IMG/VR virus record: IMGVR_UViG_3300031758_000004
Span: 1 to 64,000 of that record
From: a virus
Direction: 5' to 3' (one strand)
DNA length: 64,000 nucleotides
Shown here: piece after piece, positions 25,262 to 43,520 of the stretch
Layout of the letters: each line of letters begins with the position of its first letter
Position numbering within the stretch: the first letter of the stretch is position 1
Position numbers and translations under genes: made by a program
The notes under the pieces: generated by a model
The model's input: only the letters and a program-made list of their open reading frames with translations
Told to the model about the DNA's origin: nothing
Database searches by the model: none

Positions 25262-26788
25262 ATGCTTATTGAAACACAATATTTGACAAATACGAAGAAA
25301 TTAGTTTGTAGTTATGTAGATAAAACCGGTGATATAAAACTTAAATATTATGACTGGGATAATCCAGTTAAATACGTTACTTGTGAGGAGAATGATCCTC
25401 AAAAACATCCAACTTATAAATCTTGGGATGGTAAATCAGTAAAATTGGTTCAAGTTGAGAGACCTGATAGATACGCAATCTATGAGTATTTAGACGCACT
25501 TCCAAAAGAAGAACAAGATGAGTTGTTTGAGTTTAACCTACCAAAGATTTACTTTATAGATATTGAAACTGAAATTATTGATGGTTTTCCTGAAGCTGCT
25601 GATATTAAAGATCAGCAAGGTAATGTTATACAAGAAGGAGCAGCTACTCAAGTTCTTTCAATATCAATTGTTTATGACGATAAAATTATCTTATTAGGTT
25701 TAAAGGATATGCCTGAAGATATGCAAGAACGTATAAGAACTAACACAAATAAATACTTTAAGAAATTTAATTCAGATTATAAGTTTAAGTATGTTAAGTA
25801 TGATGATGAGTTTGATATGTTATATGCTTTCTTTCATAAAATGGTTCCTAAAATGCCACTTTTAACTGGATGGAACTTCTTGAACTATGACTGGTTGTAT
25901 TTAGTAAACCGTTCTAGAAAAATATCCAAATGGATGAATGGTAAAGAATATAGAATCAATCCAAATGAATCATCGCCTTTAAAAAGATTGAATAAAATGT
26001 GGGGAACTGATTTTGAGGTACCAGCACATAGAATGATCTTTGATTACATGCAATTATATGAAATTTGTGATACTTCAATCAAGGTAAAAGAGTCATCATC
26101 ATTAGACTTTGTTTCTCAGAAATTAGTTGGTGTTGATAAAATTAAATATACAGGATCATTACAAAAACTTTATGAGGATGATTTTGAAACTTTTATGTAT
26201 TATAACGCTGTCGATAGTGTCTTAGTACAAAAAATTCACGAAGCAAGAAACTATATCTCTATTGTTTATGCGATCTCTTCATTATCGAGAATTAGAATTG
26301 TTGATGTTGTTTCTCAAATGAATAATGCTTTAGCTTCTTTAGCAATCACAGAAGGAGTTTTAAGAAATCGATTTAGAGAAATGGATAATATAGTTCTTTT
26401 CAAAGACGAAAAGGGAGATGGTGAATCAACTATTGCAGGTGGATGGGTTAAAGATCCAGTAGTCGGAATGAACAGATGGTGTGTTACTTATGATTTCAGC
26501 TCACTTTATCCCACAACACAACGTCAGTTTTACATAGCCCCTGAAAACTTCGTTGGTGTTCAATCAAGTAGAGATAAAACTATGTGTGAAAATGGTAGAG
26601 AAATTGATTTAAATAATCATGTGTTATGTGTAAATGGTGTAGTTTTCGAGAAAAGGTTATCACCCACACTCAAGATGTTGGAAGATATATATGCCGATAG
26701 AAAATATAATAAAAATATCATGATGAGCAAAAAGGAAGAGCTTAAAAAAGTACTTGATATGATCAAAGAATTGGAAAATGATATTTAA
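25262..26788 (+). CDS. Family B DNA polymerase, N-terminal fragment (gp43A-like)
   Basis: ExoI FIDIETE, ExoII GWNFLNYD, ExoIII YNAVD, motif A YDFSSLYP. Ends after RKYNK; no motif B NSxYG or motif C DTDS. Confidence 0.88.
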   Translation: MLIETQYLTNTKKLVCSYVDKTGDIKLKYYDWDNPVKYVTCEENDPQKHPTYKSWDGKSVKLVQVERPDRYAIYEYLDALPKEEQDELFEFNLPKIYFIDIETEIIDGFPEAADIKDQQGNVIQEGAATQVLSISIVYDDKIILLGLKDMPEDMQERIRTNTNKYFKKFNSDYKFKYVKYDDEFDMLYAFFHKMVPKMPLLTGWNFLNYDWLYLVNRSRKISKWMNGKEYRINPNESSPLKRLNKMWGTDFEVPAHRMIFDYMQLYEICDTSIKVKESSSLDFVSQKLVGVDKIKYTGSLQKLYEDDFETFMYYNAVDSVLVQKIHEARNYISIVYAISSLSRIRIVDVVSQMNNALASLAITEGVLRNRFREMDNIVLFKDEKGDGESTIAGGWVKDPVVGMNRWCVTYDFSSLYPTTQRQFYIAPENFVGVQSSRDKTMCENGREIDLNNHVLCVNGVVFEKRLSPTLKMLEDIYADRKYNKNIMMSKKEELKKVLDMIKELENDI

Positions 26789-26798
26789 TATATAATTA

Positions 26799-27767
26799 AT
26801 GGCTATTAAAATAGATAAAGATGAAATTTATAAAAGACTTAAATTAAAACACCCAGAATATACATTTGATATGAGTGATTATTTAAACACACATTCAAAA
26901 ATAAAAACGATCTGTGATAAAGGTCATGAATCTATACAAACTGTTAAGAATTTATTAAAAGGACATGGATGTAATACTTGTGGTAATAATAGATCTTCAG
27001 AAAAACAAAAGTCGAATTTTGATGATGTTCTAAAAAAGTTTAGAAGTAAACATGGTGATAAATACGACTATTCTGATTTTGTTTATAAAAAAAATAGAAT
27101 AAATTCCACTATAAACTGCCCTGAGCACGGACCTTTTCAACAATCAGCTTGGTCACATATGAATGGAAATGGGTGTGCATCTTGTTCAAATAATAAAAAA
27201 TTAGATACTGAAAATTTTATAAAAAGAGCAAAGAGTGTACACACTATTAATTATGATTATTCAAACGTAGAATATGTTAACATGAAAACACCGGTTACTA
27301 TAATATGTCCAAAACATGGACCTTTCACTCAAGTACCAGCTACTCATGTTATATCAGGATCCGGATGTCCTGTGTGCTCACAATCATATGGAGAGAGATT
27401 AATTGAACTTTTCTTAAATAAAAATAAAATAAGTTATGTGAGACAGAAGAAGTTCAAAGAGTGTTCTTATAAACAATTACTACCTTTTGACTTTTTCTTA
27501 CCTGAATATAACACTTGTATAGAATTTAATGGAATACAGCATTATCAACCAGTTGAGTTATTTGGTGGCGAACCTAATTACAAACTTACTATATTAAGAG
27601 ATAGTATAAAACAAAAGTTTTGTGATGATAATAGTATTAAACTGATTATAATTAAACAAGATAGAAAACATATAGATAAAAAGGATGTTAATCTACAAAT
27701 AGAGAATATAATAAATATATTGAATATCAAGGAATCATTTAAGATTTTTAAAATTCAAAGATTATAA
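26799..27767 (+). mobile_element. Free-standing homing-endonuclease-like gene (CPxHG repeats plus Vsr/DUF559-like nuclease)
   Basis: KHGDKYDY..CPEHG..GCASC repeats; IEFNGIQH. Confidence 0.8.
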
Positions 27768-27778
27768 ACTATAAAATG

Positions 27779-27802
27779 AAACCACTCAATCGAGTGGTTT
27801 TA
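27779..27802. terminator. Bidirectional intrinsic terminator
   Basis: aaaccactc-aatc-gagtggtttt. Confidence 0.8.
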
Positions 27803-28465
27803 TACTTTTACGTATTTTATATCAAAATGAGGTAATTTTTCAGTAATTACTTTTCTAGCTTTTTTGATATACTTTGAATTATCATCATAAAAAATAGCTT
27901 TTTTAAATCCAGTTTCTTCAATTAATTGAACTATTTTATGACCTTTCCATTCACCTGCATTTCTATGATTTAAACTTGGGTACATATGTAAACCATATTT
28001 TGGTTTACTAAATCCTAAATCTTTAAGAGATTTTAAAATTTTATCTCTGATTATTTCTGGTCTAGCTGTTACAATACATTTATTTTCAACAGAATCATAA
28101 AGATCTTTTAAACTTTTAACCTCTTTTGGTAAACTATCATCTGATAGTGAAAACTCATTTGGTGGTAATAGATAAACTCTTAAACCTTTTCTTACCCAAT
28201 ACTTTGAATTCGATGGTATTTCTAATTGATTATTAGGATCTTCAAAATAAATTCTCCCATCTAAATATTTTAATAAATTTTTATCTACATCGATTTCATT
28301 TATACACTTATTGACTAACTCTTCAACACTAACATCTTCCTTTAAGTAGGGAATTGCTAACTCCTCAAATTCAGGAGTTTCAACTAATGTATCGTCAAAA
28401 TCAAAAATATATAAAATATCTTGATTGACGATACCTTTGAATTCAAAAAACTTTTTAATCTTCAT
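27800..28465 (-). CDS. HAD-superfamily phosphatase with CTS-like N-terminus
   Basis: Likely start MKIKKFFEF at 28465; FDFDDTL, VTAR, FYDD. Confidence 0.7.
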   Translation of the reverse strand: MKIKKFFEFKGIVNQDILYIFDFDDTLVETPEFEELAIPYLKEDVSVEELVNKCINEIDVDKNLLKYLDGRIYFEDPNNQLEIPSNSKYWVRKGLRVYLLPPNEFSLSDDSLPKEVKSLKDLYDSVENKCIVTARPEIIRDKILKSLKDLGFSKPKYGLHMYPSLNHRNAGEWKGHKIVQLIEETGFKKAIFYDDNSKYIKKARKVITEKLPHFDIKYVKV

Positions 28466-28637
28466 AAAAAAATATCTCATTTAGAAGTGATTTTATACCA
28501 TCTCCAAAATGTTCAATACACATAGTATATATTTCTTCTGAAAATTCATATCCTTCAATAATTAAAGAATTGACATATTCTTTTACATCTTCTGATGTTG
28601 TGTATATGTTAAAATCATCATAATCTAGTAAATACAT
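28455..28637 (-). CDS. Small hypothetical protein
   Basis: 60-aa acidic ORF. Confidence 0.55.
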   Translation of the reverse strand: MYLLDYDDFNIYTTSEDVKEYVNSLIIEGYEFSEEIYTMCIEHFGDGIKSLLNEIFFYED

Positions 28638-28696
28638 AAGGGAAAAAAGTTTATTTTTCTTATATATTTACTAAAAAATATAAAAAACCTCTTTTT

Positions 28697-29674
28697 TTAA
28701 ACATTTTTTATAAGATTTACGAATTCTTTGAAACTTTTAATACTTTCATTTAAAATTTCATCTAAAATAGAATTTAACTTAGAGTAATCCTTGTATGATA
28801 TTCTAAATAATTTTATATTGTTATTTTTACAATAATCATTTTTACTTATATCTCTCAATTTCTGATTGTTAAACTCCGCATCACCTCCAAATCTCACTCT
28901 TGGTTCAAAATGTTGAATACCATCATATTCAATACATATATTTTTTAATGGTAAAAAGAAATCCATCTTTAATTTAGTTCCAGGTATTATTCTTTGTTCT
29001 TCAAATTTTATATTTTTAGATATAAGAAAATTTCTTATAAATTTCTCACCCTTTGATATTATATTTCTATAACAAACAGGACATCCTTGTCCAGATAAAT
29101 GTTTATCAGGTCTTTGTTTAAATTCACCATGATCAGGACATATTATAATAGATGCTTCTCTATTATTTATATACTCAAATTTTGAATAATCATATTTATT
29201 TTGGTGTATTATATTAGATCTTTCTGTAAATATATCTCTTGTTAATTTATTTTTACCACACAAATTACATCCTTGATTTTGTCTTAAATGATTATTTAAT
29301 CTTTTAGAGAAAAAGCCATGTACCGGACATATTATATCACTTATAACAGCAGTTTGCCCTGTTCCATTTATTTTGCATTTAGAATAATCATAATCATACA
29401 TTTTTTCCAATCTATCAATAATTGTTTTATCATCTAACTTGTTTAATTTTTTAACTCCCGTTAATTTCTCCGCAATTTTCAATTGTGAACACTTTTTACA
29501 ACCATTTCCATTCATATGTGATTTAGGTATTTGTTCAAAATAACCATGTATCGGGCATTTAATTTTAACAGGTGTGTATTGATTTATATAATTAACATTA
29601 TCATAATTAAATTTATCACCATGTTTATCTTTTGATCTATCTATAAACTCTTCATATGTTATCTTTTTTGGCAT
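28697..29674 (-). mobile_element. Free-standing homing-endonuclease-like gene (CPxHG repeats plus Vsr/DUF559-like nuclease)
   Basis: Likely start MPKKITYEEF at 29674 behind TAATATATA (29697-29705, minus strand); IEYDGIQH. Confidence 0.8.
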
Positions 29675-29714
29675 AAACTTTAATAAAACTTTATCATATA
29701 TATTAAAAAAAAGT

Positions 29715-31382
29715 ATGTCACTTAAAAAAGATTTAGCAAAATTTAAACCAAGAAAAGAACAGAAGGAAGCATTGGAATTTATAGATTCGGAATATAATAA
29801 AAATAAACTAAACAAGTTCTATCTACTTAATCTACCAGTTGGTACGGGTAAATCTTACTTAGCCTTAATGATTGCAGACTGGTATAAAAAGAATGTAAGT
29901 AAATTCGCAAGAGTTGATGTTATCACTAACAGTAAAATTCTACAAGACCAATACTCAGAAACTTACGAATCAATTTCTGATTTAAAGGGTAAAGAGAATT
30001 ATGAATGTGAATCTTATTCTTGTTCTTGTGCTCAAGGTGGTGAGTTTAATAGACTTAATAAAACAACTTGTGAATCTTGTCCATATACAAACGCTAGAGA
30101 GAACTATATTAGTGGTGGAATCTCTTTAACAAACTTTTATCTTTATATTCTTTATGCGATTTATAATCAAAAGTTAATGGAATCAAGAGGAGCTAGAGTT
30201 TTAATTGTTGATGAGTGTCATGAATTTGATGATGTTATGTCTGACTTTATCTCCATTAAGATAACTGAGACAATAGTTAAGAGGTTTAAATTTTCAAATG
30301 AATATGAGATTTTGAAAAAGTTAAAAGCTGTGAATACTATTCAATCATATGTTGATTTTCTTTCATATTTTAATGGTGAAATTTTAGATACCGTTGAGGG
30401 AATGGAGAAAGGAATGGTTAATACAAAAAGAGATGTTAAATCTGATAAAAGAGATTTGAAAATCTCAAAAGTTTTAAATAGTAAAAATAGTGACGTTAAG
30501 TTAATGAACTTAGTTACAGATTTAAAACAATACCAATTAAAAATAGAAGTATTCTTAAAAGAATATAAGGAAAATCCAAATAACTGGGTATTGGAATCTA
30601 ATTGGAATGAAAAAGCTAGACAAAAAGAATTATCCTTAGAACCAATTTGGTCTTTTGATTACTTAGATAAGTATGTTTTTGCTCACTATGATATGGTTTT
30701 TCTTATGTCTGGAACTATTTTAGATAAGAACTTATTTTGTAATCTAAACGGATTAGATGTTAGTAAAGCTGTTTACTATTCAATTGGATCTCCTTTTCCA
30801 TTAAAGAATAGACCTATTTTTTATATGCCATTGGGTAAGATGTCATTTAAAACAAAAGAAGAAACTTTTAAAAGATATATTCCTTATATACAGAAATTAT
30901 TAGATAAATATAAAGGTAAAAAAGGAGTTATACACACAAATTCTTTTGAACTGGCTAAATGGATTGAAGATTCAATTAAAGATCCAAGACTTATTTTCCA
31001 CGATTCATCTAATAAAGATGAGGTTTTGAAAATGCACTTTGAAAGTACAGAACCAACTGTTATTGTTAGTCCTTCAATGGATACAGGCGTTAGTTTTGAT
31101 AATGATAAAGCCCGTTTTCAAATTATTGCTAAAATTCCTTATCCTTCTTTAGCATCTCAGAAAAACAAAATGAGACAAGTCAATAATCCGGATTGGTATA
31201 GTTGGAAGACCTGTGCTGGGTTAGTACAAATGACTGGTAGACCAGTTAGATCTATAACTGATTATGCTGATACTATTGTATTAGATGGTGGATTTGGTGA
31301 TGTTATAAAACACTCTTCTCATTTTTTACCAGATTGGATTCAAGAGGCAATCAAAAGAGTAAATGTTAAAATAGACGCATAA
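29715..31382 (+). CDS. DinG/XPD-like SF2 helicase
   Basis: LPVGTGKS, IVDECH, MSGT, SPSMDTGVSF, QMTGRPVRS; Cys cluster CESYSCSC..CESC. Confidence 0.85.
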   Translation: MSLKKDLAKFKPRKEQKEALEFIDSEYNKNKLNKFYLLNLPVGTGKSYLALMIADWYKKNVSKFARVDVITNSKILQDQYSETYESISDLKGKENYECESYSCSCAQGGEFNRLNKTTCESCPYTNARENYISGGISLTNFYLYILYAIYNQKLMESRGARVLIVDECHEFDDVMSDFISIKITETIVKRFKFSNEYEILKKLKAVNTIQSYVDFLSYFNGEILDTVEGMEKGMVNTKRDVKSDKRDLKISKVLNSKNSDVKLMNLVTDLKQYQLKIEVFLKEYKENPNNWVLESNWNEKARQKELSLEPIWSFDYLDKYVFAHYDMVFLMSGTILDKNLFCNLNGLDVSKAVYYSIGSPFPLKNRPIFYMPLGKMSFKTKEETFKRYIPYIQKLLDKYKGKKGVIHTNSFELAKWIEDSIKDPRLIFHDSSNKDEVLKMHFESTEPTVIVSPSMDTGVSFDNDKARFQIIAKIPYPSLASQKNKMRQVNNPDWYSWKTCAGLVQMTGRPVRSITDYADTIVLDGGFGDVIKHSSHFLPDWIQEAIKRVNVKIDA

Positions 31383-31410
31383 AAAAACTCACCAATTTGG
31401 TGAGTTTTTT
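31381..31410. terminator. Bidirectional intrinsic terminator
   Basis: aaaaaaactcacc-aattt-ggtgagtttttt. Confidence 0.85.
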
Positions 31411-31435
31411 GTTTATAATTCGATGATACGTCAAA

Positions 31436-32059
31436 TTATTTCTTTTTATTTTTAGCTTCTTTAGCTGCTTTTTTCATTGGCTCTTTTTTATCACCATCTT
31501 TATCTAAATCTAAGAAATCTGGTTTAGCACCTTTTTTACCACCTTTTTTCTCATCTTTATCCTCTTTTTTACCTTCTTTCTCAGCTTTCTTTTTATCTAA
31601 ATAAGCTTTGAAACCAGCATTCATTTTTTCATTGAAACCTTTGAAAGACTCAACATAAGTATCTTCTTCAAAATTTTCATCCTCATCTTCGTCTTCATCA
31701 GAACCAAAATCTTCGTGAGAATACTCATCTTCTTCGTGAGAAAAATCTTCTTCGTCTTCATGACCAAAATCTTCGTGAGAATACTCATCCTCTTCATCGT
31801 TACACGGTTCACATTCTTCTTCATCAGAACCAAAATTATCAAATGATGAAATTCTTGATCCACCTAATGATGAATCTTCTTCATCACCCCAATTTTCTTC
31901 ATCATGATTAAATTCATCACCTTCTTCTTCGTCATGACCATAGAAATCATCTTCGTGACCGAAATCACCTTCTTCTTCATCATGACCATAGAAATCATCT
32001 TCTCTTTCAATTTCAGATTCAGGGTTGAAAAATTCATTAATTTTCTTTATAAATCTCAT
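31436..32059 (-). CDS. Highly acidic repeat protein with basic tail (internal head/scaffold-like)
   Basis: MRFIKKINEFF; EDDFYGHDEEEGD x2 and EDEYSHEDFG repeats; C-terminal DFLDLDKDGDKKE. Confidence 0.6.
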   Translation of the reverse strand: MRFIKKINEFFNPESEIEREDDFYGHDEEEGDFGHEDDFYGHDEEEGDEFNHDEENWGDEEDSSLGGSRISSFDNFGSDEEECEPCNDEEDEYSHEDFGHEDEEDFSHEEDEYSHEDFGSDEDEDEDENFEEDTYVESFKGFNEKMNAGFKAYLDKKKAEKEGKKEDKDEKKGGKKGAKPDFLDLDKDGDKKEPMKKAAKEAKNKKK

Positions 32060-32128
32060 TTTATACGTTTTATTTTTAATTATATATTATTTTTTAAAAA
32101 CCGTTTTTTTACTTTTTATATATACATT

Positions 32129-33181
32129 ATGAAAGTTTTTAATTATTCAGAATTCTTGTTAGAAGAAGCAGGTGAAAGACTTAAAGGTCTATTTAAGTTA
32201 TCCAGAGAAGTTAAACATAAATTAAATATAATTATCAATAATTTTGATGATTCAGTGGGTAAAGCTTTGTTAGAATTAGATAGAAGTGAACAAGAAATGA
32301 CTTATATAAATCTACATAGTGAAGATAAAATACTTTATGTTCCAATGGATAAAGTCAAATCTTTTTTTGATAATCCAAGTGTTAATAGATTTGTTAAAAA
32401 ACAAAATCTAAATGATTTAATTAGAATTTACGAATTTAAACCAGATCCAGGAAAACTATATAATTATTATTTTGATACAAAGTTATCATTTACTGAGATT
32501 TATGTTGGTAGATTTGTTAAAAAATTATTAGGTGATACATTTAGTGATAAAGATATATCACTATTTGTGGAAAGATGGGTATCAACAAATACAAGTGGAA
32601 CTTTTCAAATATGGGGAACTGATAAAGTATTAGATGCTTATTGTACAGGTAATTATGAAGAATACTTGGGATCAACTTTAGACCATTCTTGTATGAATGA
32701 TGATCATTCTGTTAATTTTTATAGAGCTTGTCCAGGAGTTAAAATATTGGTACTACTTGATGATCAAGAATCTATAAAGGGTAGAGCTCTTCTTTGGGAA
32801 ACAACTTCTGGTAAAAAATTAATGGATAGAGTTTATTATAATACAGAGGCTGATTATCAAAAGTTTATGAAGTGGGCTATAGATAATGACTATTATACAA
32901 GAAGCAAGACTAGTAATTCAATTGACGCTTTTCATTGGAAAGGAAGTCCGTTAGTAGTTACACTAAAAGAAAAAGTAGTTTTTCCTAATATAGATGAATA
33001 TAGAAATGAAGATTTTCCATATTTAGATACATTTTGTTATTCACAAGGTGGTTTTGGTATGAATTATGAACCATCTGAACCTGGTAAATATTATAAACTT
33101 CAAGAAACGGATGGAACGGTTGAAGAGTTTTTTAATATTGATCCAAGTCAAAGAGATATGACACAAGATGATAATTGGTAA
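32129..33181 (+). CDS. Conserved phage protein with CTS-like N-terminus
   Basis: Likely start MKVFNYSEFLLEEA at 32129; SCM..GRALLW..MDRVY..FPYLDTF. Confidence 0.65.
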   Translation: MKVFNYSEFLLEEAGERLKGLFKLSREVKHKLNIIINNFDDSVGKALLELDRSEQEMTYINLHSEDKILYVPMDKVKSFFDNPSVNRFVKKQNLNDLIRIYEFKPDPGKLYNYYFDTKLSFTEIYVGRFVKKLLGDTFSDKDISLFVERWVSTNTSGTFQIWGTDKVLDAYCTGNYEEYLGSTLDHSCMNDDHSVNFYRACPGVKILVLLDDQESIKGRALLWETTSGKKLMDRVYYNTEADYQKFMKWAIDNDYYTRSKTSNSIDAFHWKGSPLVVTLKEKVVFPNIDEYRNEDFPYLDTFCYSQGGFGMNYEPSEPGKYYKLQETDGTVEEFFNIDPSQRDMTQDDNW

Positions 33182-33202
33182 TCTAAAATTAATATATAAT
33201 AT

Positions 33203-34006: not shown

Positions 34007-34011
34007 AAATG

Positions 34012-34038
34012 AAAATCCTTAATATAAGGATTTTTTTT
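34012..34038 (+). terminator. Intrinsic terminator
   Basis: aaaatcctta-ata-taaggattttttt. Confidence 0.75.
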
Positions 34039-34095: not shown

Positions 34096-34824
34096 ATGAC
34101 TACTCCACAATTAGAGAAAGTATATTTTAATTACATTTTAAAGAACAAGAAATATTTTGAGATAGTAAAGGCTTATTTTTTTAGAAATTCGGAAATTCAA
34201 TTTGTTTACGGCGTAATTAGAGAATATATGTTGAAAGGTTCGGATGTTGAAATCCCAACTCCGAGACAAATTTTAGACATGGTTAACCTTCAAGATAAAG
34301 AAGGTATGATAACCAAAGAGATTTTAAAATCAATTCTTCAAGTTAATCTTGATGAATATGATGAGAAAAACTTTATAGAACCAAACTTTAATGGTTGGGT
34401 TTTAGCAAATCGATTAAAAACTGGTACAGTAGATATCATCGATGAAACTAGAAATCTAGATTCAATATCTGACTTTGATAAAGCAGTCGAAGCTGCTAAT
34501 AGAATTAAAGGTATTGTTGATGAGATGTCATCAACTAGATTTGTACAAGATGATGATATGGGTTCAGATTTTGATGAGGCTGAAAATCACGTACAAGATT
34601 CCTCAAAATTTAAAGTTAAATGTGGATTCGAAACCATTGACCATATGCTAGGTGGTGGATGGGATATTTCTACATTAAATGTAATAATGGCTGAAACTAA
34701 CAACGGAAAATGTTGTTCTTTTGATACGGTGATAAAAGTTAGAGATAAGAATAATGGTAATGTTTCAAATGTTGATTTTGGAACATTCTTTGCCAAAGTT
34801 AGTCAGTGGGGTGTTGATATTTAA
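34096..34824 (+). CDS. dnaB: gp41/DnaB helicase N-terminal fragment fused to split-intein N-part
   Basis: CGFETIDHMLGGG..LNVIMAETNNGK, then CCSFDTVIKVRD (intein block A). Confidence 0.88.
   Translation: MTTPQLEKVYFNYILKNKKYFEIVKAYFFRNSEIQFVYGVIREYMLKGSDVEIPTPRQILDMVNLQDKEGMITKEILKSILQVNLDEYDEKNFIEPNFNGWVLANRLKTGTVDIIDETRNLDSISDFDKAVEAANRIKGIVDEMSSTRFVQDDDMGSDFDEAENHVQDSSKFKVKCGFETIDHMLGGGWDISTLNVIMAETNNGKCCSFDTVIKVRDKNNGNVSNVDFGTFFAKVSQWGVDI
34711..34821 (+). other. Split intein IntN, 37 aa (atypically short)
   Basis: Cys1 immediately after the Walker A GK; ends at stop 34822-24. Confidence 0.8.
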
Positions 34825-34847
34825 TATATAAAAATAAAATATTAAGT

Positions 34848-36029
34848 ATGAATGCAGATGCTAAAAAAAGATATAAGGATATAGAATTTCCTTACACTTG
34901 TCCTATTAGTAATAGAATATTTGAGAGTTCACAGGGTTTATCTTGTTATGTTACAAAAACATTGAAAATGAATCATGAAGAGTATTATGATACTTATATA
35001 AATCACAGAGACAATTCTTGTTTCTTTTGTGGTAGTAAAGGTAAGTTTATTTCTATATCAAAGGGATATAGAAATTTATGTGAGAGTCAAGAGTGTGTTA
35101 AAAAATCATTTAACTCTCATAGTGTAGAGGGATTCATGTATAGAAATATGCTTTCTAGAGAAGAAGCTGAAGTTCAATTTAAAATAGAAAATGAAAGGCA
35201 GTTGAAAGAAAGGATTGAATCACAAAATAAATTAAGAAAAATAGATAAAAATTGGGACAAAAAAAGAAGTAGAAACTGTAAGTATTTTTGGATTGAGAAG
35301 GGATATTCTGAAAAGAATGCTATTTTAAAAGCAAAAGAGGTTATGGATGAAATTCATTTAAAAACCTCTATTAAATTAAAATCAAATCCTGAAAAATATG
35401 CACATAAATATCCAACGAAAAAGGAGTACTATTTAAAAAGAGGTTTTAGTGAAGAGGAGGCTATTGAAAAGATATCTGAAATACAAAATAGATTTTCGTT
35501 ACAAAAATGTATTGAAAAATATGGCAAAGAAGATGGTAAAATAGTTTTTGAAGAGAGACAGAGGAAATGGATCGAAACAATAGATTCAAAAACAGAAGAG
35601 GAGAAAATAGAAATTAATAGAAAAAAATTATTTAATAATGGTGGATATTCTAAAATTTCACAAAATCTTTTCTGGAGTATTTATGAGAACTTTAAAAATA
35701 ACAAAATTAATTTTGAAGAGTTAAACTCAGAAACCATTAGATATGATAAAATAAATAAAAGACATTATAGATTTGATTATGTTGATCATAGTAAAAAGAA
35801 ATGTATTGAATTTAATGGTGATTATTGGCACTGTAACCCTGATAAGTATAATGAGAGCTTTATACATCCTATATTGAAAGTAACATCAAAAGAAATTTGG
35901 AAAAAAGATATTGATAAAATCAATTGGTTTAGAAAAAGGGGTTATGAAGTTTTTATTGTTTGGGAATCTGAATATAGAAAAAACCCGAAACAAACCGTAG
36001 AAAAATGTATAAAATTTATTAATGAATAA
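34848..36029 (+). mobile_element. Free-standing Vsr-like homing endonuclease
   Basis: C-terminal CIEFNGDYWHCNP..VFIVWESE; sits between the intein halves. Confidence 0.8.
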
Positions 36030-36471
36030 TTTAGATAATTTTGAAGTAATAGAAGCAGATAGTCTATTAGAAGGTAAGTATGATAGACCGCTTTATGATA
36101 AATTCATCGAAGCATATGAGGTGGATAATTTTGAGGTATTGACCCCAAATGGATGGGTTAATATAGAGGGTATTGGTAAAACAATAAAATTTGAAGAATT
36201 TGAAATTATTACCTCCGGTGGTAAAAATTTAATATGCGCTGACAAACATCTATTATATAGATGTGATAATATGGACTTTTCATCAAAAAAATGTGATTTG
36301 ACAGAGATATATTGTGAGAAATTAGAATTGGGTAATTTTATAATGACAAAAGATGGACCGGAGCAAATTATGAATATATCAAAAACCGGAAAAAATTCAC
36401 ATATGTATGATTTACAACTATCAGAGGGTTCTAATAAACAGTATTATATAAATGATATTCTTAGTCACAAT
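36022..36471 (+). other. Split intein IntC, 150 aa, containing blocks B, F and G
   Basis: Ends His-Asn (36466-71); Ser+1 at 36472. Confidence 0.8.
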
Positions 36472-37191
36472 TCTCTTTGGATGCAAAATTTTGCCGTTAA
36501 ATCAGCAAATATGGGACACAATGTTCTTTATATCACTCTTGAAATGAGTGAGCGTAAAGTTATGAAGAGATTAGGTGCTATGAGGTTAAAAATTCCTATT
36601 AATGATTATGATAATCAATCTAAGGATGTTGAATTGATTAAATCTAAGATAGATGCTCTCAAACGAATAGAAGGTGGTGTTGATTTATTTGAAAATAAAG
36701 TTGGTAAAATTATAACTAAATTCTGGGCAGCCGGAACAGCAACTGTTAATGACTTTGATAATTATATTCAAAGATTAAAAGAAAAGAGAGGTATAAAAAT
36801 CGACCTAATTATAGTTGATTATATTACATTGATTGCTGCTAATAAAGGATCTAATGCTGATAATCTTTATACTAAGGGTAAACACTTAGCAGAGGGATTA
36901 AGAGCAATGGGAGCAAAATATATGTGTCCTGTTATAACTGGTGTGCAGGTTGCTAAAGATGCTTGGAACTCATCCGATATTACATTAGAAGCCGTACCTG
37001 AGTCAAAAGCAATAGCAGAGACTGCTGACACCTTCTTTGCTATCATCCGTACAGAAGAAATGAAAAGACAAAACTTATATAGATTTAAACTACTTAAACA
37101 AAGAGATGGTGATTTCTTAAAATCACAGATTAGATTGAGTTTAAATCCAGTTTATTTAACACTAGAAAACGATCAGTTTTTAGATCAATAA
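36022..37191 (+). CDS. dnaB: Split-intein C-part fused to gp41/DnaB helicase C-terminal fragment
   Basis: VLTPNGW, LICADKH (block B), MYDLQL..ILSHN|SLWMQ; then YITLEMSE, IIVDYI, VITGVQ, ESKAIAETAD. Confidence 0.88.
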   Translation: MNNLDNFEVIEADSLLEGKYDRPLYDKFIEAYEVDNFEVLTPNGWVNIEGIGKTIKFEEFEIITSGGKNLICADKHLLYRCDNMDFSSKKCDLTEIYCEKLELGNFIMTKDGPEQIMNISKTGKNSHMYDLQLSEGSNKQYYINDILSHNSLWMQNFAVKSANMGHNVLYITLEMSERKVMKRLGAMRLKIPINDYDNQSKDVELIKSKIDALKRIEGGVDLFENKVGKIITKFWAAGTATVNDFDNYIQRLKEKRGIKIDLIIVDYITLIAANKGSNADNLYTKGKHLAEGLRAMGAKYMCPVITGVQVAKDAWNSSDITLEAVPESKAIAETADTFFAIIRTEEMKRQNLYRFKLLKQRDGDFLKSQIRLSLNPVYLTLENDQFLDQ

Positions 37192-37245
37192 GAAACAAAG
37201 ATAATAAAAAATTATATAAAACAATACAAAAAATAAAAAAAATCT

Positions 37246-38196
37246 ATGGCTAAAAAAGTTAGAGATGATGAAGAAGATTTCGATGATGAATTAGATAATG
37301 AAGTCGGTGATGAAATTATTGATGATTTAGACGATGAAGAAGATTTTGATGATGAATCAAAATCAGATTCTGATCTGAATTTAGACGATGATGACAATTT
37401 AGATATTTTGATTGAAATTGACGATGATGATTTAAATTTGATGGATGATGAGAAAAAAAGTTCAGAGGATGAAGATGATATAGTTCTTTCTAAACATAAA
37501 ATCGAAGGTAAACATTCATTAAAATATGATTCTATTTTTAAGGGTAAAAAAGAAGATCCTTTAAGTGAAGATGATATGGATGGATTTGCTTTTTATCATA
37601 AAGAAAGCATCGAAGTTGATAAATCATCAAACTACTATTTTGAATCTATTGATAATGAAAATTATATTAGAACAAAATTGGTTAAAGAAAGAGTTTATGC
37701 CGTTTTAACGGAACATACATCTCTTAATTTCATGAATAATCGAAGAAAACCTTCAAGATCAGATTTTAATCAATATTATACCTTATTGAAAAGAAATTTA
37801 GAAAGTGAAAGTTTTACTAATATAGAATTGTTTAATGAGTTAGCAGTTTATTTTTCAGATAATCTATTTAATATGTTTAAATTATTAGATAATAAATGGC
37901 GTAATTTGATAATAAAAGAATTACAAGAACATATTGGTAAAAACGCAAATTCTAAACAAGTTATGAATAGAAATATTTATGTTGGAACCGAAATAGAATT
38001 CATGTGGCATGATGAGTTTGGTGATGATAAATTAATTACTGGAGTTGTTTTAGAAACTAACTACGATGATTCAATGTTTAGAGTTGATTCTTATGAAAAT
38101 ATCTATGATATTCATATCAGTATTATAACAAAAATCTTAAATAACACAAAATTTAAGTATAATTTAAATAAACTTAACAACATTGATTTTTTATAA
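37246..38196 (+). CDS. Hypothetical protein with acidic N-terminus
   Basis: 316 aa. Confidence 0.7.
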   Translation: MAKKVRDDEEDFDDELDNEVGDEIIDDLDDEEDFDDESKSDSDLNLDDDDNLDILIEIDDDDLNLMDDEKKSSEDEDDIVLSKHKIEGKHSLKYDSIFKGKKEDPLSEDDMDGFAFYHKESIEVDKSSNYYFESIDNENYIRTKLVKERVYAVLTEHTSLNFMNNRRKPSRSDFNQYYTLLKRNLESESFTNIELFNELAVYFSDNLFNMFKLLDNKWRNLIIKELQEHIGKNANSKQVMNRNIYVGTEIEFMWHDEFGDDKLITGVVLETNYDDSMFRVDSYENIYDIHISIITKILNNTKFKYNLNKLNNIDFL

Positions 38197-38283
38197 AATG
38201 AGCTATAAAAAATCAAAAAATTTTAAAGGTTTAATATTTTAAATAAAAAAACGATGAAATATATAAAAAACAAAAATTAAAAT

Positions 38284-39906
38284 ATGAGCATGATAAAAGT
38301 CACAAAAAGAAATGGTAAGAAAGAAACCGTTAATTTCAATAAGATTGTTGATCGTATAACACAACAAACTTATGGATTAGATCAAAAGTGGATAGCACCG
38401 TTTGAGATCGCACAAAAAGTTATTGAAGGTATTACACCAGATATTAAAACTTCTGTGTTAGATCAATTGGCAATGGAAACTGCGGCTTCTCTTACAACAA
38501 AACACCCAGATTACTCAGTTTTAGCAGCAAGAATCGCTATTACTTCTTTACATAAAGAAACTAAAAAGAGCTTTTCAGAAACAGTTAAAGATTTATATAA
38601 CTATGTAGATCCAATGACAGAGAAACATTCTCCAATTGTTTCTTTGGATTTTTACAACATTGTTAAAAAACACGCTGATGATTTAGATTCAGCTATTGTA
38701 CACTCAAGAGATCATAACTTTGATTACTTTGGTTACAAAACTTTAGAGAAATCTTACTTATTAAAAATTAATGGTAAAGTTGCTGAAAGACCTCAGTATA
38801 TGTATATGAGAACAGCACTTCAAATTTGGGGTGAAAACTTAGAAAAAGTAATTAAAACTTATAACGAATTATCAGAAGGTTATTATACTCACGCAACACC
38901 AACATTATTCAACTCTGGAACAGGTAGACCACAATTATCTTCTTGTTTCTTATTAGATACTGAATCAGATTCTATTGATGGTATTTTTAACACATTAAAA
39001 GAAGCTGCTCAAATCTCTAAAAACGCGGGTGGTATTGGTATCTCTTTTAACAAAGTAAGAGCTAAAGGAACTTATATTGCTGGTACAAACGGTACTTCAA
39101 ATGGTATTATTCCTTTCTTAAAAATCTATAATGAGACAGCGAGAGCGGTAGACCAAGGTGGTGGTAAACGTAAAGGATCAATTGCTATTTATATGGAACC
39201 ATGGCACGCTGATATTATGGACTTCTTAGATTTAAGAAAGAACCAAGGTAAAGATGAAATTAGAGCTCGTGACCTTTTCTTAGCAATGTGGATGAACGAC
39301 TTGTTTATGGAAAGAGTTGAGTTAGATGCTGATTGGTCATTAATGTGTCCTCACGAATGTACTGGATTGAATGAAACTTATGGTGAAGAATTTAACAAAC
39401 TTTATACTTCTTATGAAGCGGCTGGAAAAGCTAAAAGAGTTGTTAAAGCAAGAGAAGTTTGGAATAAAATATTAGAATCTCAAATTGAAACTGGTACACC
39501 ATACTTATTATACAAAGATTCAATCAATGAGAAATCAAATCAATCAAATATTGGAATGATACACTCATCTAATCTATGTTTAGATGGAGATACTTTAGTT
39601 AAGTGTAGAGTTGAAGGTGTAGAGAAAGAATTTGATATGGTCACAATAGATCTTATGTTTAAGAATGGTAAGAAAATAGAAGTTCTTTCTAGAGACTTAG
39701 AAACAGGAATTGATGAGTGGTGTTTGGTTGAAAACTCTGGTATAACCAATCATAATGCGGAAACTATCAAAGTAACAGATGAAAGTGGGAATTACATAAT
39801 CTGTACAGAGGATCATCAAGTTTGGACTCAAAATAGAGGATATGTTAGAGCTGGTGATTTAGAAGAAAATGATATTTTATTATTAAATGAAAAAGAACTT
39901 GTTTAA
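38284..39906 (+). CDS. nrdA: Class Ia ribonucleotide reductase alpha, N-fragment plus IntN
   Basis: ATP cone VTKRNG, ATPTLFNSG, LSSCFL, QGGGKRKG, SSNL|CLDGDT. Confidence 0.92.
   Translation: MSMIKVTKRNGKKETVNFNKIVDRITQQTYGLDQKWIAPFEIAQKVIEGITPDIKTSVLDQLAMETAASLTTKHPDYSVLAARIAITSLHKETKKSFSETVKDLYNYVDPMTEKHSPIVSLDFYNIVKKHADDLDSAIVHSRDHNFDYFGYKTLEKSYLLKINGKVAERPQYMYMRTALQIWGENLEKVIKTYNELSEGYYTHATPTLFNSGTGRPQLSSCFLLDTESDSIDGIFNTLKEAAQISKNAGGIGISFNKVRAKGTYIAGTNGTSNGIIPFLKIYNETARAVDQGGGKRKGSIAIYMEPWHADIMDFLDLRKNQGKDEIRARDLFLAMWMNDLFMERVELDADWSLMCPHECTGLNETYGEEFNKLYTSYEAAGKAKRVVKAREVWNKILESQIETGTPYLLYKDSINEKSNQSNIGMIHSSNLCLDGDTLVKCRVEGVEKEFDMVTIDLMFKNGKKIEVLSRDLETGIDEWCLVENSGITNHNAETIKVTDESGNYIICTEDHQVWTQNRGYVRAGDLEENDILLLNEKELV
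39577..39903 (+). other. Split intein IntN, 109 aa
   Basis: CLDGDTLV (block A), ICTEDHQV (block B), YVRAGDLEEND. Confidence 0.88.
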
Positions 39907-40786
39907 TTATGAGGATTTTATAACAGATAACATAGATAATACATCCTTTATCTATGTTTATCTGGATCCTAGAAAATCAGGAGACTATAAATATGGTGAA
40001 TATGAATTTAATCATGAACCTTTTTATGTTGGTGCTTCTAGTGGTAAAACTATACATGATCGAAAAGTTCGACATTTACAATACGCGAAAAACGATAAGG
40101 ATATAACAAATAATAATTACAAAAAGAATATAATAAAGAGTATATTATCAGATAAATTAGAACCAATTATATTGAAATATATTGATGGTATGAGTATATC
40201 AGATGCCTTTTTTAAGGAAAAAGATATGATACTAATCATTGGTAATAGATATGATAAGTCAGGACCTCTAGTTAATATATCAAAAGGAGGAGATGGTGGT
40301 GATAACTTTACTAATAATCCAAGAAAAGAGGAGATAAGAGAAAAGCATAGAAGAAATGCTTTAGGATCGAATAATAATATGTATGGTCTTCCTTTAGAAG
40401 AATATCCATCACATAAAGCAAAGTTGAGAGGAGAACATTGGAATATGGGTAGAACCGCGTCAATATCAACAAGAGAAAAGCTATCCAAACAAAGAAGTGG
40501 ATCTGGTAATAGTAGAGCTAAAAAAACTTTACTTTTTGATAAAGACTTCAATATAATTAGAGAATTTGATTATTGTTTTGATGTATCTAATTATATTAAC
40601 TCATCAAATAGGTCGGTTTCCAAGACCGCAAGTACAAATTCAAAAGAGGAAATGTATCCATATCATACAACAAAAGGTTATTATATAATCTATAAGGATG
40701 ATTGGGAAAATAAATTTAAGAATAAAGAAAATGAAATTAGAGAATATCTAAAGACATTTAAGAAAAATAAAAATCAATTTTCATAA
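39887..40786 (+). mobile_element. Free-standing GIY-YIG-like homing endonuclease
   Basis: FIYVYLDPR..FYVG..R, LVNISKGGDGG, NNMYG. Confidence 0.8.
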
Positions 40787-40803
40787 AAAATAAAAAAAAT
40801 ATT

Positions 40804-40899
40804 ATGATCAAAATCGAAAAAGTAAAAAATAGACCAGTTTATGACATTACTGTGAATAAAAATCACAACTTTTATGCTAATAATATATTAGTACATAAC
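40804..40899 (+). other. Split intein IntC, 32 aa
   Basis: Blocks F and G ending His-Asn; Cys+1 at 40900. Confidence 0.88.
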
Positions 40900-42165
40900 T
40901 GTGCTGAAATAGTTGAAGCGACAGGCGTTACTAAAACGCAAAAAGCTATTTTAGAAAATAAAGAGTTATTAGAGAAATTAGGGTTAGGTGAATTCTGGGG
41001 TCAAGAAGAAGTAAATGAAACAGCAGTTTGTAACTTAGCTTCTTTAGCACTTCCTAAGTTTATCAATAAGAATAAAACTTATAATTTTAATAAACTTTAT
41101 GATATTGCTTATGATGCGATTGTTAACTTAAATAATGTTATTGATGTTAACTTTTATCCATCACCATCAGCTAAATTTTCTAACTTATGTCATAGACCAG
41201 TTGGTTTAGGTGTTCAAGGATTAGCAGATGTTTTCTTTCAATTAGGATTACCATATGAATCTGAAGAGGCTAAACAATTAAATAAAGATATTTTTGAAAC
41301 TATCTATTACGCTTCAATTAAAGCTTCTTGTGATTTAGCTAAAGTACAAGGCACTTACGCAACTTATGAAGGTTCACCTATTTCACAAGGTAAATTCCAA
41401 TTTGATTTATGGGGAACTAAACCTAGTAAAAGATGGGATTGGGATAAATTAAGAGAAGAAGTTAAGAAGTATGGTGTTAGAAACTCTTTAACAACTTGTA
41501 TCATGCCAACAGCATCAACAGCTTCTATCTTAGGTAATGAAGCATCTTGTGAAGCTCAAACTTCAAATATGTACACAAGAAGTGTTCTTTCAGGAACTTT
41601 CATTATGGTAAATAAATATTTAGTTAAAGAATTAGTTAAGTTAGGATTATGGAATGAAAATTTAAGAAAGAAAATTATTGCTGAGAATGGTTCGGTTCAA
41701 AATGTACCTGAAGTACCAACTAACTTGAAAGAAATCTTTAAAACTGTTTATGAGATTAAACAAAGAGATGTTATCGAGATGGCTGCTGATAGAGGAGCGT
41801 TTATTGACCAAACTCAATCAATGAATATTTTTATGGATTCTCCAAACTTTGCTAAGTTGACAGCGATGCACTTCTATGGATGGGGTAGAAGAAACTTAAT
41901 GACCAATGAAAATGGTGAAGTTATTATCCCACAAGGAGAAAATATTCAAGTTATTTACGATTCAGAAGGTAAAGCAAGATGTTATAAAGATAAGAGATAC
42001 ACATTAAAAACTGGTATTTATTATTTAAGAAATAAATCAGCGGCAGACGCAGTTAAATTCACTGTACAACAAGATACGGCTAAGAAAACTGTTGAAGAAC
42101 AAATGGCTGAAATCTCGTGTAGCTTAGATTCAGATCCTGGTGAATGCATGGCATGCGGCTCGTGA
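40804..42165 (+). CDS. nrdA: IntC plus ribonucleotide reductase alpha C-fragment
   Basis: MIKIEK..VYDITV..NFYANNILVHN|CAEI; VCNLAS, GLGVQG, MPTASTA, DQTQSMN, terminal CMACGS. Confidence 0.92.
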   Translation: MIKIEKVKNRPVYDITVNKNHNFYANNILVHNCAEIVEATGVTKTQKAILENKELLEKLGLGEFWGQEEVNETAVCNLASLALPKFINKNKTYNFNKLYDIAYDAIVNLNNVIDVNFYPSPSAKFSNLCHRPVGLGVQGLADVFFQLGLPYESEEAKQLNKDIFETIYYASIKASCDLAKVQGTYATYEGSPISQGKFQFDLWGTKPSKRWDWDKLREEVKKYGVRNSLTTCIMPTASTASILGNEASCEAQTSNMYTRSVLSGTFIMVNKYLVKELVKLGLWNENLRKKIIAENGSVQNVPEVPTNLKEIFKTVYEIKQRDVIEMAADRGAFIDQTQSMNIFMDSPNFAKLTAMHFYGWGRRNLMTNENGEVIIPQGENIQVIYDSEGKARCYKDKRYTLKTGIYYLRNKSAADAVKFTVQQDTAKKTVEEQMAEISCSLDSDPGECMACGS

Positions 42166-42192
42166 TATATAACTGATTATCAAATACTTATA

Positions 42193-42225
42193 AATGGTGA
42201 GAGTTTACTTTCGCCATTTTTTTTT
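42193..42225 (+). terminator. Intrinsic terminator after nrdA
   Basis: aaatggtgagag-ttta-ctttcgccattttttttt. Confidence 0.8.
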
Positions 42226-42358
42226 CTATAAAAATAAATCTCTTTTAACGTCTCTATTTATTTTACTACAAAGTGGTTGTAAGTTGGTATAGTGATTTAA
42301 TCTAATAACATCCTCTTCTGTTTCAGATGATGGTATTCATTACTTCTTTAGCTTTCAT
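42226..42358 (-). pseudogene. Relic: short MKAKEVMN start joined out of frame to an HNH endonuclease C-terminus
   Basis: Minus strand reads MKAKEVMNTII* in one frame and ETEEDVIRLNHYTNLQPLCSKINRDVKRD in another; the latter is near-identical to the end of HNH 60459-61238. Confidence 0.7.
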
Positions 42359-42476
42359 ATTTTATATATTAAATTTGATTTGTACATTTTTGTACATTTT
42401 CTGTATAAAATCCACACTTTTTCGATTGTAATTTTAATTACACATATATAATCATATTAAAAAAATTAAAACTTTT

Positions 42477-42507
42477 TTTGGTAATTAAAATAAAAGATGT
42501 ATATTTG
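42477..42507 (+). promoter_or_regulatory. Bacteroidota-type housekeeping promoter upstream of the RNA/Ro locus
   Basis: TTTG (42477-80), 19-nt spacer, TATATTTG (42500-07). Confidence 0.7.
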
Positions 42508-42598
42508 TAAAAGATTTCTGACTGAGATTTAACAAATGAAAATCTTTTAAAGAAATTTTAAACTTTTTAAAATATAAATATAAAATAAAAACAAAATT

Positions 42599-42673
42599 AC
42601 CGTAGTTAGAGAAAAGGTTACTTCGCAATTTTTAGGATAATTTCAAAACACACCTTATCTCAATTTTCTCGGT
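42599..42673 (+). ncRNA. Putative Y RNA-like RNA 1 (~75 nt)
   Basis: Ends pair (ACCG/CGGU, GAGA-AAGGU/ACCUU-UCUC) around UACUUCG; located upstream of the Ro/TROVE gene. Confidence 0.65.
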
Positions 42674-42682
42674 CATTATTAA

Positions 42683-42914
42683 AACAGACATAGCAATAGC
42701 TCTGAGATACTTCGAACTATAAATAACAATTCAGATCGAAAAGTGTCAAAAGCGACAGCTACGACTACCAAGAAGGTATATTCTCTGGAATATTCTGAGG
42801 TGAAAAAGTCCGTTAGTCTTCACGTTACGGAGACGAGTGGAATGGTCACTACAACCATTGATAGAGTTTCGGGAGAATTCTCTATGACGCTTAGGCTAAA
42901 CTTTCTTGTCTGTT
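42683..42914 (+). ncRNA. Putative Y RNA-like RNA 2 (~230 nt, multi-hairpin)
   Basis: AACAGACA/UGUCUGUU and UAGC-CUGAG/CUUAG-GCUA terminal stems, UACUUCG motif, internal hairpins; GC-richer than its flanks. Confidence 0.65.
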
Positions 42915-42923
42915 ACTTATTAT

Positions 42924-42967
42924 AATGACCAGGATATACAAATGTATAGTTCTGGTCATTTTTTTTT
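42924..42967 (+). terminator. Intrinsic terminator after the RNAs
   Basis: aatgaccagga-tatac-aaat-gtata-gttctggtcatt followed by a T-tract. Confidence 0.8.
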
Positions 42968-43014
42968 GTAGAAATTAAAGAAATTAAAAATATTAAAATA
43001 AAATTAAAGAAATT

Positions 43015-43485
43015 ATGGCTAGATTTAACGCAACATTACCTAAACAAAAGACCTTAACTAATAACTTAGCAGGAGGTCAAGCTTATTCACAATCTGATGA
43101 ATTAGCATTAGTATCATTTTTACTAACATCATTTGTTAGTGATCAATTTTATAGATCATCTGATCAATCTTTGAATGAGTTGAAAAAACTTTTAATCAAA
43201 GTTGATCCTGTTTTTGCCGCTAAAGCAGCTATTTATGCCAGAGATAAGTTTGGTATGAGATCTGTTGCACATGCTTTAGCAGGTGAGTTAGCAAAGTATT
43301 TATCTGGAAAAGATTTTGCTAAGAATTTCTATGATAAAATAGTTGTTAGACCTGATGATATGATGGAGATATTAGCTTATTATAATACAAATTGTGGGAC
43401 TAAAATTCCTAACTCTATTAAAAAGGGATTCGCAAAATCATTTGATAGATTTGATGGTTATCAGTTGTCTAAATGGAAAAAATGA
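43015..43485 (+). CDS. Ro60/Rsr (TROVE) protein, N-terminal fragment
   Basis: NNLAGGQAY, FYRS, AAIYARDKFGMRS, VVRPDD, SIKKGFA..FDGYQLSK. Confidence 0.85.
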   Translation: MARFNATLPKQKTLTNNLAGGQAYSQSDELALVSFLLTSFVSDQFYRSSDQSLNELKKLLIKVDPVFAAKAAIYARDKFGMRSVAHALAGELAKYLSGKDFAKNFYDKIVVRPDDMMEILAYYNTNCGTKIPNSIKKGFAKSFDRFDGYQLSKWKK

Positions 43486-43520
43486 TATTTGAAAAATAAT
43501 ATATACTTAAAAAGTATATT

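Follow-up and report, generated by a model that had tools for sequence, protein, structure and literature searches.

Fractured genes, in which a gene is broken at an intein and a free-standing endonuclease open reading frame (ORF) lies between the two halves, were described at 26 loci by Dassa et al., 2009 (PMC2677866), who also named the Vsr-like endonuclease family. In that account, the 5' end of the incoming element gives rise to a stop and to control signals and its 3' end to a downstream Met. Genes that are split by a homing-endonuclease gene (HEG) without any intein have been reviewed as well, the examples being Aeh1 mobE in nrdA and T4 mobA in gene 60 (PMC2988022). The split gene 43 (43A/43B) of the Aeromonas phages 25 and 44RR, with seg43(25), was reported by Petrov et al., 2006 (summarised in PMC2988022), and the phage 25 seg gene may have entered a gene 43 that was already split (PMC2988022). 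Control by a promoter located in a hairpin is known for several phage endonuclease genes, namely I-TevI, segB and Aeh1 mobE (PMC2988022; also PMC2677866). Here, we examine a stretch of 64,000 nucleotides (nt) of viral DNA, hereafter the window, which is the minus strand of bases 59941-123940 in the 135.8-kb IMG/VR record IMGVR_UViG_3300031758_000004. An earlier, sequence-only reading of the window had pointed out that four of its genes, those for a B-family DNA polymerase (PolB), DnaB, NrdA and a Ro60/TROVE protein (Ro), end at the 5' edge of an endonuclease gene, a layout that the gene coordinates confirm (Table 1). It had proposed that the endonucleases insert as promoter-bearing cassettes that cut genes in two, and it had singled out a 17-nt word, TGATATTTAATATATAA, at the PolB and DnaB breaks.

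The record has a G+C content of 28% and an estimated completeness of 56% (CheckV). Because it is syntenic with 634-642-kb records annotated as 'uncultured phage' (DNA identity 72-78%) and with dozens of contigs from IMG/VR, the longest of 597 kb, the window is, as judged from this synteny, a piece of a huge phage genome. LR745206 (634 kb) served as the main comparison relative; its region around the PolB N-half (PolB-N) is locus L004, the region around the PolB C-half is L005/L007, and the other L numbers used below likewise denote loci of relatives. Taking motif, insertions, PolB history and the coincidence behind the 17-mer as one explanation, we consider it likely that the window is the module for replication and nucleotide metabolism in an uncultured huge phage, and that free-standing HEGs have colonised it.

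The element common to most of these genes is the motif TAATATATA. It occurs in 40 copies in the record (divided 23 to 17 between the strands), 37 of which are intergenic although a crude gene call gives a genome that is 94% coding, and nearly all copies are oriented towards a downstream ATG; placed in this way, the 9-mer is clearly no random word. The distance to that ATG falls into two classes, 4-5 nt (about 20 copies) or 15-25 nt, with a spacing of exactly 4 nt in about 40% of the copies. Among the 8-mers found within 60 nt upstream of genes, sub-words of TAATATATA show the strongest enrichment (up to 25-fold), and AATATATA precedes 40 of 151 genes, a 21-fold enrichment. Words of the T4-type late promoter TATAAATA were not among these enriched upstream 8-mers. 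Related loci totalling 1.26 Mb hold 367 copies of TAATATATA, about 2.3 times the number found for controls of the same composition, and an ATG follows at exactly 4 nt in 19% of them as compared with 1-2% for three control words that do not overlap TAATATATA. Accordingly, TAATATATA is the dominant, clade-wide gene-start motif of these phages. It stands before 7 of 9 endonuclease-like genes and before 24 of 142 other genes (odds ratio 17, Fisher p=2e-4); the endonuclease genes are therefore mostly self-contained, motif-bearing units, and the motif is not specific to them. The case that the earlier reading had noted as a caveat, of a stop overlapping the motif with no endonuclease, is real: at 3567, a 136-amino-acid (aa) ORF stops inside the motif and a 228-aa ORF without a family match starts 4 nt later. 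The arrangement of TAATATATA, 4-5 nt and ATG is also seen, for example, at 12669, 19411, 26786, 33190 and 60446 and in relatives across L008-L165, and a mild excess of G is seen 12-14 nt upstream of it (in 11-15 of the 40 copies). A literature search on TAATATATA gave no phage-related paper among the 10 top-ranked of 234 matches.

What the motif does is suggested by its placement. It could be some other gene-start signal, such as an enhancer of translation initiation in a host that does not use Shine-Dalgarno sequences or an RNA-processing site, with the HEGs being read from upstream promoters. The rigid 4-nt spacing would fit a signal for translation no less than a leaderless promoter, no Shine-Dalgarno sequence is seen in the 5' regions, and in T4 seven free-standing HEGs have no promoter (PMC2988022). 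However, the second spacing class, at 15-25 nt, speaks against a strictly translational role, copies are found between divergent genes, a position that calls for a promoter (54106/54117, 55844/55871 and 61968/61979), and the motif is similar to AT-rich -10 and T4-late-type elements, all of which makes a non-promoter signal unlikely. We therefore read TAATATATA as most likely the main promoter core of the clade. If TAATAT is its -10 element, transcripts would start at or beside the A of the ATG and the mRNAs would be leaderless.

At the DnaB locus, the history of an insertion can be followed through an allele series. The intact, intein-less DnaB of LR745206 (444 aa) reads ...AETNGGK/SLWMQNF... 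(the slash marks the junction), and alignment with this allele confirms that in the window DnaB is divided between two neighbouring ORFs. The insertion point of the intein is exactly GK/S, the window reading GK/CCSF... at one end and ...LSHN/SLW at the other, so that the catalytic residues are present. Its split is atypical, the N half having 37 aa and the C half 150 aa. A DnaB intein is lacking in most relatives; 14 have it, with the same split point in every one that could be examined. Eight alleles, that of the window and seven with homologous cassettes at the same site, carry the Vsr-like gene. In all eight, the stop of the intein-N half is the TAA of TAATATATAA (..ATT/AAA TAA-TATATAA), and A(C/T)ATT precedes this TAA in seven of them. 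Six split alleles without an endonuclease gene (L072/L073, L074, L078, L079 and L082) are also without the motif. The stop-plus-motif junction at DnaB thus moves with the cassette, as had been proposed. Since about 45 nt of the endonuclease 3' end are retained before the intein-C ATG in L072/L073 (3890-4000), at least some of the endonuclease-free split inteins arose by loss of the gene after the fracture. The product of DnaB would be restored by protein trans-splicing of the two halves.

A tentative assignment of the DnaB-site endonuclease to the Vsr-like (EDxHD) type comes from profile comparisons: its profile gives weak matches to the Vsr structures 1vsr/1cw0/1odg (E=0.055-0.076) over the catalytic core, and the Pfam family MTES_1575 matches at E=0.001, below its cut-off. 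A direct sequence search of the endonucleases against solved structures gave nothing significant. The DnaB junction is also where an RNA hairpin is predicted, with a folding free energy (dG) of -11.8 kcal/mol, a z-score of -3.8 and none of 200 shuffled sequences as stable. Similar but weaker hairpins are predicted in some relatives (L075, L071). No compensatory pairs were found in a covariation analysis of this hairpin, and no significant hairpin was found at the PolB, Ro, NrdA or second-HEG junctions.

Ro is contiguous in 23 of 23 full-length alleles (22 from IMG/VR plus LR745206; 474-539 aa; the further locus L152, cut by a contig end, was left out of the count). In the window, about 0.7 kb, nearly all of it the HNH ORF, is inserted between ...YQLSKWK and KLVDVVNLVHP. 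The junction reads AAA AAA TGA tatttgaaaaa TAATATATA, exactly as first described, and the insert supplies the TGA stop, the 11-nt spacer, the motif, the HNH ORF and the ATG of the C fragment (Ro-C), with no intron or intein. As stop, motif and new ATG all lie in DNA that is absent from the 23 intact alleles, the proposal that an insert bearing a putative promoter made this break is borne out. Ro would have to work as two chains, presumably by fragment complementation. We also observed that the flanks of the insert resemble the host stretch AAGGATGTTAAG (L004 14795-14815), with AATGATATTTG on the left (43476-43490) and AAATGTATAAATTAG on the right (44180-44200); this likeness could be a short duplication or a scar of co-conversion.

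NrdA is likewise broken at an intein, here a canonical one. The splice junctions read ...NL/CLDGDT... and ...LVHN/CAE with the catalytic residues present, and the two halves match positions 1-213 and 189-514 of Pfam Ribonuc_red_lgC; the Pfam family Intein_splicing scores 22-23 bits, below its cut-off of 35.8. Protein trans-splicing would restore NrdA. No TAATATATA was found upstream of its GIY-YIG gene, so that this break lacks the motif; a related GIY-YIG cassette in the relative L165 does have the motif. The layout is therefore that of a fractured gene without the motif, and the GIY-YIG gene, which overlaps the intein-N end, is probably co-transcribed. A shorter part of the 17-mer, TGATATTT, lies 17 nt upstream of the GIY-YIG ATG. 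It is not conserved, because relatives read GGATATTC or TGATACTT there. The whole nrdA region (38199-42841), intein and GIY-YIG gene included, is absent from the synteny with LR745206, where DnaB and its neighbour are followed directly by the Ro region.

PolB differs from the other three in that the gene was already in two parts before the endonuclease arrived. PolB-N matches Pfam DNA_pol_B over positions 18-150 of 453 and covers positions 42-497 of 502 of the DNA-polymerase family phrog_2062. The corresponding ORF of LR745206 (513 aa, 81% identical; L004 6029-7570) has the same end (...LEAELY before the stop, as compared with ...LENDI), and a convergent gene follows it directly, with no endonuclease gene between. 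In 61 IMG/VR relatives PolB-N ends at the same residue, typically as ...LEAEI or ...LESEL, mostly without an endonuclease gene and with many different sequences downstream. In LR745206, the C-half forms an ORF of its own (475 aa; 130634-131950, minus strand; Pfam positions 138-452) at a distance of about 100 kb. Because of this conserved N end, the HEG-free relatives and the distant C-half, comparison across the clade indicates that PolB is ancestrally a two-gene enzyme and PolB-N a complete gene, which would work with its C-half by fragment complementation. The neighbouring endonuclease, then, did not cut PolB: no C-half follows it and the break is not its work. In the polymerase, both ends of the break are predicted to be helical and coiled-coil-like (...KKVLDMIKELENDI and MNKQEKLERIEELKIKAVSLKK...).

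The endonuclease gene at PolB, whose product also matches Pfam DUF723/DUF4379, is placed between the PolB-N stop (26788) and the convergent gene at 27800; a search of the Protein Data Bank with its profile gave no match. At the junction, TGATATTTAA belongs to the native coding sequence of PolB, where relatives have the homologous GAAAT(A/T)TAA, and the insert contributes only TATATAA.... The HEG thus seems to have lodged right after the native PolB stop, host TAA and cassette TATATA together forming the motif. L042 carries a 55%-identical endonuclease homologue at the same site with the same TAA/TATATA overlap. Since eleven other relatives (L030, L033, L037-L039, L047, L048, L050, L052, L060 and L064) have GIY-YIG genes directly after PolB-N, the 3' end of PolB-N is, from these comparisons, evidently a hot spot, where members of at least two endonuclease families have landed repeatedly. 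Several of these eleven share a leader after PolB-N that reads stop-tatagggaagt...TAATATATA.

The 17-mer TGATATTTAATATATAA is the remaining element to be explained. Both copies are exact, and they are the only two in the 135.8-kb record even when one mismatch is allowed; in each, the TAA both closes the upstream ORF in frame (...ENDI and ...GVDI, respectively) and opens TAATATATA. The flank that the sites have in common outside the 9-mer amounts to seven bases upstream and one downstream, and some pair among the 40 copies of the motif would share as much flank with P=0.44 (column shuffle). TGATATTT is nearly always in frame as xxT-GAT-ATT-T, i.e., Asp-Ile in preferred codons. Probably, the identity of the two copies comes from the 9-10-nt motif, the TAA overlap and the commonest codons for Asp and Ile (GAT ATT); the GAT ATT part is essentially a coincidence and not a mobile junction sequence. 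The distance from motif to ATG also differs between the two sites, 4 nt for the PolB-site endonuclease and 17 nt for the DnaB-site one. Alignment with other alleles agrees only in part with what had been anticipated: the Ro stop, motif and ATG are absent from intact alleles, and the PolB-N end is native. Of the two findings that the earlier reading had named as refuting it, each was made in part: the 17-mer belongs partly to host-gene sequence, and it also stands at an unrelated gene, an exact copy in the relatives L072/L073 lying between divergent genes, 4 nt before a non-endonuclease gene of 330 aa and without overlapping a stop.

Two further candidates were considered and rejected. A common origin of the PolB-site and DnaB-site endonucleases is not supported by profile-profile alignment, which covers only 66 columns (the nuclease core) with a probability of 6%. 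The other candidate is TGATATTT, taken as a signal conserved at the four breaks; each of them has it, but relatives differ at that position (GAAAT(A/T) at PolB; AACATT/AATATT/GACATT at DnaB) and it is mostly in-frame Asp-Ile. Separately, a 13-mer, GAAAATGATATTT (ENDI), is common to the PolB-N end (26775-26787) and the NrdA intein-N (39866-39878); as it is not conserved in relatives, this sharing is probably due to chance in an AT-rich genome.

Short-patch ectopic recombination between promoters, or parallel selection for an RNA or operator element, might instead have made the two 17-mers identical. There is a precedent in T4, where I-TevI has an operator and start-codon-sequestering hairpins are known (PMC2988022), and the hairpin at the DnaB copy would sequester the start codons of its HEG, with weaker analogues in relatives. 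Moreover, codon -2 is GAT in both HEG-bearing PolB alleles (window and L042) and GAA or GAG in most of the HEG-free ones. Yet the PolB copy has no hairpin (dG -0.4 kcal/mol), the identity ends abruptly at 17 nt, the DnaB hairpin is without covariation support, and a shared operator is unlikely since the HEG proteins are different; we give this explanation little credence. Least tenable, and largely refuted already, is the original idea of the 17-mer as a conserved 5' end on a mobile stop-plus-promoter cassette that inserted into all four genes and cut them: both exact copies do sit at stop/HEG junctions, the HEG sites do share flank and the stop/motif overlap is kept in all eight DnaB cassettes, but the word is not restricted to homologous or independent copies of an element and fails as a cassette signature, given that the PolB-N end with TGATATTTAA is shared with HEG-free relatives, the two HEGs are not homologous outside the nuclease core, the TGAT positions read aac, aat or gac in DnaB cassettes, a relative has the word before a non-HEG gene, and NrdA has neither the motif nor a conserved TGATATTT. 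Of the general proposal that promoter-bearing cassettes cut genes, what stands is that the DnaB and Ro insertions carry stop and motif; the pre-split PolB and the motif-free NrdA do not fit it.

Several points weigh against the explanation that we favour, namely a pre-split PolB, motif-bearing HEGs and a coincidental 17-mer. The window's own PolB C-half was found neither by Pfam search nor by tblastn with the LR745206 C-half in the record, which is 56% complete, and a HEG since lost could have been what made the ancestral PolB split. When restricted to the four endonuclease sites, a comparison made post hoc, the flank sharing has P=0.0045. The presence of TGATATTT near all four breaks leaves room for a weak functional or recombinational link. 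The left part of the DnaB 17-mer lies in a significant hairpin and may be under selection there. Finally, the promoter role of TAATATATA is a putative one, read from the sequence.

Further endonuclease genes are scattered over the region (Table 1). One of them, at 28697..29674 and of the same family as the PolB-site gene, breaks no gene, and its site is empty in LR745206.

Table 1. Features of the broken genes, their endonuclease genes and the associated junctions, in window coordinates.
Feature	Position	Strand	Evidence and remarks
Endonuclease gene (phrog_559 or HNH type)	13997-14911	+	Motif upstream
PolB N-half, 508 aa (exonuclease domain and start of polymerase domain)	25262..26788	+	Pfam DNA_pol_B_exo1, DNA_pol_B, phrog_2062
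17-mer copy 1	26779..26795	+	Last PolB-N codons (..T GAT ATT TAA) overlapping TAATATATA(A)
Free-standing homing-endonuclease gene (zinc-ribbon repeats and C-terminal ExxGxQH nuclease core)	26799..27767	+	phrog_559 4e-69; phrog_9084 'homing endonuclease'
Second endonuclease gene, same family as PolB-site one	28697..29674	-	Divergent intergenic, before DinG-like helicase; TAATATATA of its own (29697-29705, minus)
DnaB N-part (205 aa, ending Walker A ..NNGK) and 37-aa intein-N half starting with Cys	34096..34824	+	Alignment to LR745206 DnaB
Predicted RNA hairpin	34811..34855	+	5' arm GTGTTGATATTTAATAT (including most of the 17-mer); 3' arm over both candidate endonuclease ATGs
17-mer copy 2	34815..34831	+	Last intein-N codons (GAT ATT TAA) overlapping TAATATATA(A)
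Free-standing Vsr-like endonuclease gene between intein halves	34848..36029	+	Last 8 nt overlap next ORF start
Intein-C half (150 aa, ending ..SHN) and DnaB C-part from Ser+1	36022..37191	+	Alignment, Pfam
NrdA N-part and canonical intein-N half (CLDGDTLV...)	38284..39906	+	Pfam; TGATATTT at 39870 in coding sequence (ENDI)
Free-standing GIY-YIG endonuclease gene	39887..40786	+	Pfam LEM-3_GIY-YIG; ATG overlaps intein-N end
Intein-C half (..ILVHN) and NrdA C-part from Cys+1	40804..42165	+	Pfam
Ro60/TROVE N fragment, 156 aa	43015..43485	+	
Left end of HNH insert	43483..43505	+	TGA stop, 11-nt spacer, then TAATATATA; absent from 23 full-length intact Ro alleles
HNH/NUMOD3 homing-endonuclease gene	43521..44195	+	3' end contains Ro-C ATG
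Ro60 C fragment (TROVE and vWA)	44173..45147	+	First ~6 codons inside HNH gene
Endonuclease gene (phrog_559 or HNH type)	53209-54102	-	Motif upstream
Endonuclease gene (phrog_559 or HNH type)	60459-61235	+	Motif upstream
Endonuclease gene outside the window	~81084-82148 (window-frame numbering)		Motif 122 nt upstream

These elements can be combined into a likely mechanism. Most HEGs carry TAATATATA and would act as autonomous expression units. Where the motif stands 4 nt from the ATG, as in about half of all cases, transcripts would have little or no leader. A HEG landing in coding DNA would provide the upstream stop with its 5' end and the downstream ATG with its 3' end, as it seems to have done in three of the four cases (DnaB, NrdA and Ro), each time differently. 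At DnaB, the HEG lies within the intein, with the motif's own TAA as the stop. At Ro, it lies directly in a loop-coding stretch, with the TGA 11 nt before the motif as the stop. More speculatively, and in our opinion improbably, the TAA-initial promoter element might be a portable terminate-and-restart module, by which any HEG caps the upstream fragment and starts its own, possibly leaderless, transcript, and whose repeated use drove gene fission. If so, fission driven by the module could include the ancient two-gene PolB and the split inteins that later lost their endonuclease.

With respect to the systems described at the outset, no new mechanism is involved: that stop, control elements and new start come from the invading endonuclease was proposed in 2009. 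As their sequences read, DnaB and NrdA of the window have the defining features of fractured genes, Ro has those of the intein-less variant, and PolB does not have them. PolB is thus a caution against concluding from adjacency alone that a gene was cut by its neighbour. Identification of the dominant gene-start motif of the clade should be useful for annotating these genomes.

As in the fractured genes of PMC2677866, DnaB (a gp41-type helicase) and NrdA of the window are each interrupted at an intein whose halves enclose a free-standing ORF of Vsr-like or GIY-YIG type, the 3' end of the DnaB HEG overlapping the downstream ORF and the promoter-like element lying inside a predicted hairpin upstream of the HEG. 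It differs from them in that this element is TAATATATA, whose own TAA is the stop, and not the T4-type TATAAATA, in the atypical split of the DnaB intein, and in the host, which belongs to a huge-phage clade. The Ro insertion is comparable to Aeh1 mobE in nrdA: the HNH gene interrupts a coding region left undivided in all relatives, two ORFs result, and the downstream start lies in the 3' end of the HEG. Here, however, the target is Ro60/TROVE and not an enzyme of replication or nucleotide metabolism, and the two-chain product is a predicted one. PolB resembles gene 43A/43B in being a B-family polymerase in N and C halves with a HEG at the break that seemingly entered an already split gene. 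In contrast to gene 43, the split is a fixed one, found across about 60 relatives, and its halves in LR745206 are not neighbours but some 100 kb from each other; the PolB-site HEG, unlike seg43(25), is of the zinc-ribbon/phrog_559 type. As in the late-promoter/hairpin control of T4, the promoter-like motif of the DnaB HEG lies in a predicted hairpin whose 3' arm covers the translation start, so that, if it works as in T4, only transcripts starting at that promoter would be translatable. The motif is a different one, the start codon itself would be sequestered rather than a Shine-Dalgarno sequence, and the hairpin is convincing only at the DnaB site and in some relatives and is not supported by covariation. 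Unlike the loci of PMC2677866, moreover, the clade has HEG-free split alleles with a HEG remnant, which document later loss of the HEG. To the fractured-gene model the window and its relatives, from a little-studied clade of huge phages, thus add a well-resolved allele series that runs from an intein-less gene to a split intein with an endonuclease and on to a split intein with an endonuclease remnant.

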